A stretch of DNA of 64,000 nucleotides, from assembly GCA_043802485.1 (NCBI GenBank), contig JAZDKZ010000001.1:1-64000 (forward strand), given 5' to 3'. Shown here piece by piece: positions 18,001-21,000 of this stretch. How positions within the stretch are numbered: the first letter of the stretch is position 1; every line of letters starts with the position of its first letter. The position numbers were made by a program. This DNA is from Candidatus Aenigmatarchaeota archaeon. Lineage in GTDB: Archaea > Aenigmatarchaeota > Aenigmatarchaeia > Aenigmatarchaeales > Aenigmatarchaeaceae.

Positions 18001-21000
18001 GACTATTCTCTTGTGAATGTCTTTGATGTTTTTCAAACCAGATAGCATCATCTTGTAATGGTTTTGCTCTAGAAAATTCCAGCCCGAATCTTTGTAAGGA
18101 GTAAAATCAACATTTCCCGGAACTGTGAACACTGGAACATTGAAAGAATTGATGTGCTCCAACACCTCTCTGCCGCTTTTGAGGGATTCCAAAATTAACC
18201 TTTTTGCTTTTCTTTTGCCTATCAGTTCATACCATTTTAGTTTGAAATCATGATATTTCTGCCTTTTTCTAATGACTTCAAACTCGTATTTCCTTATTTT
18301 ATCATAAGAGCAGAAATTACCTGGCGCTATGATTAAGTCAAAACCTTCAAAGTGTATTTTGGGCTTGCTTCCATGCAAATCACCCAAAACCAGAATCTTC
18401 ATGCTATAAGTTTAATAAAACATTTTATAAACCTTTACTAGGCAATATTAATCATACAGCCCCGTCGTCTAGCGGTCAAGGATGCAAGGCTTTGGAGTTG
18501 TCTCTAAAGAACTGATTAAAGGATGACGAAGTAACCTTGAGACACCAGTTCGAATCTGGTCGGGGCTACACTTTTTAACCAAAAGGCTTTTAAAGTATTG
18601 TTTCTAATGTAAATAGTTAGTGATTACATGGGTTTATTCAGCGGAAGAGAACTAAAAAAGAGAAAGAAAAAGTACAGGTGGAAGAAGACCAAATACAAGG
18701 TCAGGACGCTTGGGCTTAAAGCGAAAAAGGATCCGATGGAGGGAGCTCCGAGCGCCAAGGGTATAGTTCTTGCAAAAAGGGCCATTGAGCAGAAGCAGCC
18801 TCATTCAGGATTAATCAAGGTCGTCAGAGTTCAATTGCTGAAGAACAAGAAGGAGATAACAGCCTTTGTGCCAAAGTCCGGCGGCATCGGCTTCATCAAC
18901 GAGCACGACGAGGTCATAGTCGAAGGAGTCGGCGGTTCCCAGGGAGGACCTGTAGGTTCCCAGCACGGCCTTAGATGGAGGGTAATCAGTGTGAACAAAG
19001 TAGCTTTGTCCCAGCTGCTAAAGGGCAAGGTAAAGAAAGATGGTAAGTAATGTCTGAAATAAAATTGTTTGATAAATGGGATACAGCTGGCATAGCTGTC
19101 GAAGACCCAGGGCTGAGAAAGTACATCAACCTAAAGCCAGTCATAGTTCCAAGGTCATTCGGAAGGCTCAGTGGCAAGCAGTTCCACAAGTCGCAGATGC
19201 ACATCGTGGAAAGGCTGATGAACAGGCTTTTCGTCGCAGGTCACAGGGGAAAGAAGCACAGAGTGACAAGTGGCATGAACGTTGGCAAGACCTTCAGTGT
19301 TATAGACATTGTGATGGACACCTTCTCGGTGCTTGAGAAAAAGACTGGCAAGAACCCTGTCGAGGTTTTTGTCAGGGCAATTGAGAACTCTGCGATAAGG
19401 GAAGAGGTCACTGCGTTTCAGGTCGGCGGAATAATAGTCAGAAAGGCTGTGATAACATCGCCCCAGAGAAGGATTGACCTGGCCTTGAGATTAATAACAC
19501 AAGGCTCATACCACAAGGCTGCCAAGAGCCCCAAGAAGATGAACGCATGCCTGGCAGACGAGCTTCTTGCTGCTTACAACAACGATTCCCAGAACTCTTT
19601 CGCCATAAAAGGCAAGGAAAGAATCGAAAGAGAAGCTGGCGGCGCCAGATAGTCAGATTTTCTTTATTCTGTTTTTGATAAGCTGTTCGTCCCTTTTGAT
19701 AATCTTTTCCTCTTTCTGGACAAACTTTTCTATCTTTGGCTCTTCCCTTTTGAATATGTATTCTGTCACCTCTGCTATTATTGTGAATATCGTTGCTACT
19801 ACAGTGACCGTGCCGAGAATCATCATATTGAACTCTATCCCGTGCAGATACATGGCGCTTATGTCCTCTATCACGCCGAACGCTATAAGAAATATGAAGA
19901 ACGAGATGAACCTGAGGGTTCTTTTCTTGTGCTTATGCTTTCTGTGGTGCGGCTTTGTCTTGGATTGCATAATATTAATTAATGGTCCTGCATTTTAAGC
20001 TTAATAAAAAAGCTTAAATAATATTAATTCTTATTATTCAAATCACGTGATTGGATGGCTAAAGAAGAATACTCTGACGATATACAAAACCTGATGAGCA
20101 AACCCAAGAACATCAGGAATATTGGCATTGTCAGCCATATTCACCATGGCAAGACGACGCTGACAGACAACCTTGCAGCTGCGGCTGGGCTCATGGCGAA
20201 CCAGCTGGTCGGGGAAAGGATGCTTACATGGGTCGATGACCAGGAGAGGGAAAGGCTGATGACCATTTATGGCGCCACAGTCACGATGCCCCACGATTAT
20301 GAGGGGCAAAGATACCTGATTAACCTTCTTGACACGCCTGGTCACGTTGACTTTGGAGCTGACGTCACACAGGCAATGCGTGCAGTGGACGGTGCGGTTG
20401 TAATGTGCTGCGCAGTCGAGGGCATAATGCCTCAGACCGAGACTGTTCTGAGGCAGGCTATCAGTGAGAGGGTAAAACCGGTCCTGTTCATAAACAAGGT
20501 TGATCGAGCCATAAAGGAGCTGAAGCTGACGCCAGAGCAGCTGCAGAAGAGACTGGCAAAAATCGTTATCAATGTTAACAAATTCATCCAAAGATATGTG
20601 GAGCCCCAGTTCAAGGACGCATGGGTCGTAAAGGTCGAGGACGGTTCTGTCGCTTTCGGTTCTGCATTGAGGAAATGGGCAATATCAGTTCCGTTCATGC
20701 AGAGCACGGGAGTCACGTTCAATGACATTATCGACATGTGTTCACAGGACAAGGACGAGGAGTTGTATAAAAAGGCTCCTATGAACATTGTTGTTTTGGA
20801 CATGGTCATCAAGCACCTGCCGTCCCCGAAAGAGGCTCAAAAGTACAGGATAAAAAGGCTTTGGACAGGCGACCCTGAAAGCGAAACAGGAAAACAGCTT
20901 GTCAACTGCGACTCGAACGGCAAGCTTGCTGCTGTAATAACCAAGGTTGTTTATGATCCGCATGCAGGTATGATATCCACGGCAAGGATTTTTTCGGGAA

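Follow-up and report, generated by a model that had tools for sequence, protein, structure and literature searches.

Short tRNA introns in Aenigmatarchaeota as candidate half-mer box C'/D' guides for the wobble base of their own tRNA

The closest described system is the canonical intron of euryarchaeal pre-tRNA-Trp (Haloferax volcanii; Pyrococcus sR50), which contains a box C/D RNA whose guide selects, by the N+5 rule, nucleotide (nt) 34 of its own tRNA (PMC7994747, PMC4090602, PMC2584109). Part of the duplex is formed by the intron, so that methylation precedes splicing, a feature shared with the module described below. This RNA has two guides, one for C34 and one for U39, together with all four boxes, spans about 65–103 nt, and is called unique to tRNA-Trp in the available passages of these papers. 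Free-standing archaeal sRNAs are also described for nt 34, in Pyrococcus for the Leu, Met and Trp tRNAs (PMC7994747) and in Pyrobaculum for Trp, Gln, Val, Thr and Glu (PMC6009581). They share the target position and an overlapping set of tRNAs with the introns reported here, but are separate four-box genes acting in trans. As for half-mers, guides with a single box pair, the available text of one study names their existence in cells as an open question, and considers it improbable that half-mers with C'/D' alone would assemble in (eukaryotic) cells (PMC7229835).

Here I analyze introns of a Candidatus Aenigmatarchaeota archaeon and its relatives, which resemble the Trp intron in the location of guide and target, but carry one D'/C' pair and one guide, have a median length of 36 nt, and are found for nine anticodons. 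The tRNA-Trp intron of the source genome is itself 35 nt long, with a single guide. This genome (769 kb, 89% complete) gave 43 matches in a tRNA model search, and the genes were then parsed with a custom script. The window is the 64,000-nt stretch at the start of contig C1, in which the following features were located.

18458..18568, forward strand: tRNA-Gln(UUG) gene with a canonical intron (tRNA match and script parse)
18492, forward strand: U34 of tRNA-Gln(UUG), predicted 2'-O-methylation site, paired to guide position 5 at 18507
18496..18533, forward strand: tRNA-Gln(UUG) intron, 38 nt, at site 37/38 (intron parse)
18502..18509, forward strand: tRNA-Gln(UUG) guide, positions 10 to 3, forming a hairpin with C32–G37 and intron bases 1–2, with a 4-nt loop
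18512..18515, forward strand: tRNA-Gln(UUG) box D', CUGA (motif reading)
18523..18529, forward strand: tRNA-Gln(UUG) box C', AUGACGA, with the G at 18528 paired to the first D' base
18528..18531, forward strand: 3' strand of the tRNA-Gln(UUG) BHB helix, pairing with 32–35, overlapping box C' and competing with the guide
49332..49486, forward strand: tRNA-Ser(UGA) gene; its 70-nt intron (49371–49440) is, from its box motifs, a predicted complete C/D RNA and not a self-guide
49376..49431, forward strand: tRNA-Ser(UGA) intron boxes: C 49376–49381; D' guide 49382–49394; D' 49395–49398; C' 49409–49415; D guide to 49427; D 49428–49431
54542..54670, forward strand: tRNA-Leu(UAA) gene, intron 54582–54624 (43 nt), U34 at 54578
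54586..54592, forward strand: tRNA-Leu(UAA) guide, positions 8 to 2, pairing with A31–G37, position 5 (54589) opposite U34
54594..54621, forward strand: tRNA-Leu(UAA) K-turn, consisting of D' UUGA (54594–54597), a 5-bp hairpin and C' GUGAUAA (54615–54621)

A common build in one genome and its relatives

The genome-wide survey's note had reported six introns of the source genome (tRNA-Gln, Leu(UAA), Glu, Met, Trp and Arg(UCU)) with one build, a guide complementary to the anticodon loop followed by box D', a loop or hairpin, and box C'; both coordinates and build were right in all six. Its assignment of nt 34 as the N+5 base was borne out as well, with guide position 5 forming a Watson-Crick pair with nt 34 in 6/6. 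Contiguous guide pairing, counted from C32, extends over 8 bp in Gln (one of these G-U), 8 in Glu, 7 in Met and in Arg, and 6 in Leu and in Trp. Box C' had been read as GAUGA, and this has to be corrected: the proper reading is R-U-G-A-N-N, three bases further on, giving AUGACGA (Gln), AUGACUG (Glu), AUGAUAU (Met), AUGACAG (Trp), AUGAAGA (Arg) and GUGAUAA (Leu). This reading follows the published consensus RUGAUGA (PMC6009581). In this register the first D' base forms a Watson-Crick pair with C' in all six introns (C-G in two, U-A in three, A-U in one) and in 91 of 96 across the family, against 22/96 in the other register (77/96 if G-U is included). Two bases between guide and D' had been described as free. 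This is true of position 1, which is Watson-Crick paired in a single one of the 97 family introns (G-U would be possible in 66), but position 2 is often paired with nt 31, in three of the six source-genome introns and in 69/97 across the family, where 23.6 are expected by chance.

The family set comprises 21 genomes, the source and 20 relatives, the latter searched with a pattern that requires no more than a D-loop and, at a distance, a T-loop; for one Trp and one Leu gene the motif pattern was used instead. It retains 148 canonical introns of at least 28 nt, nine of them parsed by hand, and excludes introns below this length, those at 30/31, and multi-intron genes that were parsed wrongly, for instance Leu(UAG). 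Nine anticodons (Leu(CAA, UAA), Met, Trp, Arg(UCU), Glu(UUC), Gln(UUG) and Lys(UUU, CUU)) account for 113 of these long introns, and a script with a stem filter assigned 97 to nt 34 and 12 to nt 32, with no call for four; as the nine classes were drawn after inspection of the data and the genomes are akin, these counts are descriptive and not independent trials. Among the other 35 long introns of the set (Tyr, Ile(UAU), Ser, Thr, Val, Asp, Arg(UCG)) no self-guide was found. At least one self-guide intron is present in 20 of the 21 genomes, and the source archaeon and its relatives possess six to nine tRNA genes with such an intron.

Two hundred shuffles of the inner bases of the 113 introns gave a mean of 0.39 nt-34 calls, with a maximum of four, against the 97 observed. 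Removing the stem filter from the same script lowered the number to 83/113, with spurious D' candidates winning. The guide covaries with the anticodon, because a matrix of exon swaps within each genome is diagonal; two cells depart from this, with Arg guides fitting the Lys loop through G-U (8/8) and a single stray match (1/16). The guides of ten Glu genes carry a G opposite C33.

With the guide located without use of the boxes, an NNGA starts exactly two bases past the partner of C32 in 97/113 introns. The other 16 comprise 11 Lys introns and one Leu(UAA) intron, in which the spacer is four bases long or the box is a variant, plus four Leu(UAA) introns where a palindrome misled the script. 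A further row lacks a C' within the range searched, so that the stem count covers 96, and RUGA is present in all of these. The stem pair beside the tandem G-A pairs is Watson-Crick in 91/96 (U-A 54, C-G 20, A-U 14, G-C 3), where permutation gave a mean of 39.9 and none of 10,000 permutations reached the observed number. Reduced to one row per anticodon and genus, it is Watson-Crick in 58/62 (permutation mean 24.6, again 0/10,000). At the far end of the guide, position 10 is paired in 49/67 introns (chance 18.8), while position 11 is at chance level (10/30, chance 8.3). The C/D enzyme is described as leaving position 1 unused and holding at most 10 nt (PMC7229835), and the predicted pairing window of the introns, positions 2–10, resembles this. 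The duplex counted from C32 is 5–9 bp long (median 8), with only 5–6 bp in 25/96, under the 8 bp tested in vitro; about 9–10 bp would be expected of an archaeal box C/D sRNA, and nine bp has been given as the length for a credible call (PMC6009581).

No RUGA was found upstream of the guide in any of the 97 nt-34 introns, nor terminal C and D boxes together (0/97), and the remainder of the circularized intron holds a second box pair in 1/97. The module is predicted to behave as a box C/D guide, yet falls outside the four-box class, having no terminal C and D. Rfam sRNA families gave no match at E values up to 10. An H/ACA guide holds its target U in a pocket without a partner, with an ACA box after it. 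Here the target is paired rather than left in a pocket, and is a C in 39/97. H/ACA guides and C-acetylation guides were both rejected on general grounds, since both U and C are targeted.

To gauge the range, a Met pattern that includes no boxes was run on 251 genomes of the phylum. It gave 63 matches, spread over 62 genomes from 13 families, with none in the other 189 genomes searched and none for a control pattern. Counted by eye, 62/63 have an NNGA at the same spacing, and one has the variant UCUA. A scan of GTDB for Gln, Glu and Lys, with a pattern that fixes part of the guide and D', gave at least 119 loci, about half of them being chance matches. Among the matches listed, 56 are tRNA-like and 44 have a K-turn selecting nt 34, namely, by record title, 28 from Aenigmatarchaeota, 13 titled only as archaea, and one each from Nanoarchaeota, Geothermarchaeota and a bacterium, the last being probably a misplaced contig. 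One Lys gene from Nitrososphaeria lies narrowly below the filter.

Guide fold and splicing fold

The half-mer reading proposed in the survey's note was upheld in every sequence test run (register, anticodon covariation, K-turn stem, pairing window, boxes and proteins). I consider it probable that these introns are natural half-mer box C'/D' guides, which would methylate their own nt 34 in cis, before splicing; that they guide at nt 34 in some mode is highly probable.

In a canonical intron at 37/38, the BHB helix pairs 32–35 with the 3' end of the intron and uses its last six bases, with 3–4 pairs in 86 of 109 introns and a relaxed form in Met (2 pairs). The survey's note had cautioned that the guide pairing shares bases with this helix. 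The competition is real, but the guide is a separate strand and not that of the BHB. It pairs through 36–37, which the BHB needs unpaired, and in 78 of the 86 introns with a 3–4-pair BHB the guide fold lies below the BHB fold in energy (median −3.2 kcal/mol, the K-turn energy being outside the model). Box C' lies within the last six intron bases in 64/109. Because the guide fold is usually the more stable, and box C' overlaps the BHB strand, the pre-tRNA is predicted to have two exclusive folds. For Leu(CAA) in three relatives (G002, G005 and G015), the cassette sits upstream of its target, in an intron at 30/31, with C34 still the N+5 base; the BHB of 30/31 introns is independent of the anticodon.

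In the proposed mechanism, the new pre-tRNA would fold so that the guide and its own anticodon loop form a hairpin, whose loop measures 3–6 nt. By analogy to archaeal C/D RNPs, L7Ae would then bind the K-loop or K-turn and Nop5-fibrillarin would load, with fibrillarin 2'-O-methylating the base opposite guide position 5, that is nt 34. Since bases needed by the BHB are held by the hairpin of the guide and, in most introns, also by box C', the RNP would have to release, after which the pre-tRNA could refold into the BHB and be spliced. The splicing endonuclease EndA is encoded in the source genome. The predicted targets include the tRNAs of purine-ending two-codon boxes named in the survey's note, with Met and Trp besides, and a rigid wobble base should curb misreading in these. 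Among archaeal tRNAs both Cm34 and Um34 are known, the former being regarded as a guard against misreading of AUA and UGA (PMC7668247).

An excised (circular) intron, or another pre-tRNA, might instead guide methylation of nt 34 on the spliced tRNA. The Haloferax Trp-intron guide is described as working in trans in vitro, excised archaeal introns can be circular (PMC7994747), and the Met intron of Nanoarchaeum equitans is stable (PMC3491384). Where the intron and exon-2 bases differ, guide position 9 matches the intron in 28 cases, against 11 that match exon base 38, and position 10 matches it in 45 against six; the predicted target is therefore the unspliced form, although the 11 cases would suit action in trans, as would three Leu(CAA) genes whose guides pair as far as nt 39 of the uninterrupted loop. 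Against it stand also the cis hairpin, which is the preferred fold, the five of 109 introns in which box C' is completed solely by exon base 38, and the weakness of a 6–8-bp duplex between separate molecules. I therefore regard action in trans as unlikely.

Another possibility is that L7Ae on the K-loop, together with the hairpin, merely brakes splicing by keeping the pre-tRNA out of the BHB fold, with no methylation involved. Both guide and box C' do compete with the BHB, and mammalian intronic K-loop RNAs are reported to act in cis as repressors of the splicing of their own intron (preprint 10.64898/2026.08.03.742641). However, a brake needs no set distance between hairpin and D', yet this is two bases in all but one of the Met genes; nor would it shun pairing at position 1, end at position 10, or be limited to split-box, Met and Trp tRNAs. 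The mammalian RNAs are moreover reported to have no antisense targets, as far as the available part of the preprint goes. A brake alone is clearly improbable. The half-mer reading in cis would imply a folding switch that sets the order of methylation and splicing.

Lysine and serine introns, and the protein machinery

For tRNA-Lys(UUU), the survey's note had found no clear D', which does not hold: a D' candidate, UGUA, lies four bases past the partner of C32, placing N+5 on C32. This spacer is conserved in ten Lys(UUU) genes, including that of the source genome, of which nine were called for C32 and one was ambiguous; the N+5 base is then at the edge of the duplex. In several Lys genes D' has a U in place of G, a variant seen in K-turns of rRNA. 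Seven other Lys(UUU) genes have the two-base spacer. All genomes with the two-base form encode Elp3 (six full-length, one fragment), while those with the four-base form gave no full-length match. Because the sampled genomes lacking Elp3 (G000, the source, with G002, G006, G012, G013 and G020) share one 16S branch (support 90/93; the Lys gene of G006 was not found), the spacer change and the loss of Elp3 are probably one event and not a correlation.

The Lys variants bear on whether methylation might be loose, striking several anticodon-loop bases, or follow a register other than N+5, such that the four-base form hits U34 too. Ten genes that keep an N+5 base at the duplex edge would fit this, as would the two-piece half-mer (hemi-complex) that methylated its target without site specificity, while a tethered hemi-RNA was active (PMC1635284). 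This non-specificity has however been blamed on an over-long duplex (PMC7229835), half-mers were strictly specific with L7Ae in later work (PMC7229835, PMC9670817), and the spacing is almost invariant across families, all of which makes loose methylation very unlikely. That the complement is a by-product, a duplicated BHB strand with its two bulge bases, and the boxes relic or chance, is scarcely credible: the 3' end of short introns is likewise a complement of 32–35 plus two bases, and may be the origin of the module, but guide pairing through 36–37 and beyond destroys the bulge, the spacer is AA in 3/96 against 55/96 for the true bulge bases, the K-turn stem covaries and the 30/31 introns keep C34 as N+5, so that the spacer, the stem and these introns bring this explanation close to refutation.

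The Ser(UGA) intron had been listed as lacking the motif, which is correct in that it holds no self-guide, but overlooks a full two-guide C/D RNA. It has four boxes, and the intron is kept in six genomes. Compared with the 16S gene (C6:221220-222700) and the raw genome, the guides match position 1362 of their own 16S (10 bp), and 1356 or 217 (9 bp each). Positions 1362 and 1356 are what I take to be A1408 and C1402 in E. coli numbering. The intron is a predicted full C/D guide for 16S, indicating that the lineage uses ordinary C/D RNAs too, and it serves as the positive control that the survey's sRNA pattern had lacked.

The source genome encodes fibrillarin (C5:9456), Nop5 (C5:7781) and L7Ae (C6:125446). 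Nop5 reaches 287 bits with the NCBIfam model, below the cut-off of 452, but is over the cut-off for Pfam Nop and matches solved Nop5 structures; its coiled coil is present. A shortened, non-dimerising Nop5 suited to half-mers was considered and rejected, as its alignment extends over the coiled coil and the C-terminal domain, and the segment between the two is shorter by only ~19 residues. Fibrillarin is present in all 21 family genomes, whereas the SpoU family, which I take to include TrmJ and TrmL, was found in none of the 21 (controls 14/14), most of these genomes being incomplete. A search for an FtsJ/Trm7-like enzyme gave five weak FtsJ matches, the best two of which resemble small-molecule methyltransferases. 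Scanning the whole genome for free-standing wobble guides against 19 parsed loops recovered two of the six intron guides, and two other matches that I take as chance.

Relation to known systems

A wider proposal, which I hold as tentative and plausible rather than probable, is that this whole lineage has, for ribose methylation in the anticodon loop, swapped free guide genes and stand-alone enzymes for a portable half-mer cassette of 25–30 nt within the intron. It would be self-acting, block splicing until methylation is done, be movable from 37/38 to 30/31, be retargetable from nt 34 to nt 32 by two bases (in tRNA-Lys, on the branch of Elp3 loss), and be present in some Thermoproteota also. 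With the half-mer reading, short archaeal tRNA introns would gain a selectable job, one with which reviews, in the passages available, credit only the Trp intron. Short self-targeting half-mers in tRNA introns were not found described in literature searches (with most subscription papers outside their scope and supplements unopened) or Rfam scans.

A possible relative is the 66-nt intron found in elongator tRNA-Met of N. equitans, also a DPANN archaeon, which forms a stable C/D-like RNA with one box D and one box C (PMC3491384). Compared by description, it could represent this module in a longer version, but it concerns one tRNA only, and its target is unnamed in the available passages. The mammalian intronic K-loop RNAs are likewise short, with one K-loop, an L7Ae-family protein and an effect on splicing in cis, but differ, as far as the preprint was available, in their terminal C...D order and their spliceosomal introns (10.64898/2026.08.03.742641).

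The survey's note had simply assumed that an RNP assembles on a half-mer. This concern is eased by the in vitro activity of a K-loop half-mer with archaeal proteins, which methylates substrates of 8–11 bp specifically and efficiently (PMC9670817), while for this lineage assembly would be a prediction. The engineered half-mers, namely the MMG5 K-loop RNA (PMC9670817), the delta-CD mutants (PMC7229835) and the tethered hemi-RNA (PMC1635284), have the guide at the 5' end, one K-loop or K-turn and a 3' overhang, as do the introns described here. In the tethered hemi-RNA, target and guide are joined by a tetraloop, which is the same layout as in the introns. The cis-versus-trans question (PMC2584109) could thus be put to the test with an RNA of 110 nt and three proteins in purified form. 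The engineered half-mers are laboratory constructs, whereas the introns are natural sequences, and would supply natural half-mer guides in answer to the question of their existence in cells.

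Variant cassettes in other tRNA genes

The cassette, a predicted half-mer box C'/D' guide aimed at the anticodon loop of its own tRNA, is also found in modified forms, differing in intron position, in the base paired or in the nucleotide selected. The loci concerned (L numbers), with positions in the genome under study for the Glu and Lys genes, are:

L168, L135 and L208: tRNA-Leu(CAA) genes with the cassette in a 30/31 intron, the target lying downstream of it
L006:40-154, C5:11839-11953: tRNA-Glu(UUC), with C33 in place of U33
L007:26-147, C6:52325-52446: tRNA-Lys(UUU), whose guide has a 4-base spacer and selects C32

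The replacement of U33 by C33 in tRNA-Glu(UUC) occurs in 10 family genomes, and in all of these (10/10) the guide carries a compensating G opposite C33. The 4-base-spacer form of the Lys(UUU) guide was found on the branch that lacks Elp3, and C32 is likewise selected by the guide of tRNA-Lys(CUU) in G009 (L197). G010 carries two distinct CCA-anticodon tRNA genes, each with a cassette, the second being similar to that of G009 (L197, L201).

Intron guides compared with 16S rRNA

Two further introns were compared with 16S rRNA:

Window 49371-49440: tRNA-Ser(UGA) intron, a complete C/D RNA with two guides
L187, G006 C3:20089-20192: tRNA-Thr(UGU) intron of 49 nt, with one terminal C/D-like pair

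The Ser(UGA) element is retained in six family genomes, and its guides match 16S rRNA close to the decoding site. The Thr(UGU) intron gives an 8-bp match at 16S position 465. In three genomes (G015, G017 and G014; L242, L243 and L244, respectively) the 16S matches span 2.0–2.9 kb, a length that suggests rRNA introns.

Long introns lacking the K-loop

The K-loop is absent from the 39–46-nt Tyr(GUA) introns (L011; family L035, L103, L028 and L157), where by eye the 3' part complements positions about 22–28 of the same tRNA and varies together with them. It is also absent from the Ile(UAU) introns of 15 genomes (37–40 nt; L010 and family), whose length and hairpin are conserved; the UAU anticodon is in use for tRNA-Ile in this lineage.

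Gene neighbourhood and possible occurrence beyond the family

By coordinates, a few kb separate the genes for the box C/D proteins Nop5 and fibrillarin from two tRNA genes in the genome under study, and in many family genomes one or other of these tRNAs lies close to the fibrillarin gene:

C5:7412-12589: Nop5, fibrillarin, tRNA-Leu(CAA) and tRNA-Glu(UUC)

The cassette may also occur outside DPANN: introns with this build were observed in tRNA-Lys(UUU) genes from records titled Geothermarchaeota and Nitrososphaeria (L289, L320).
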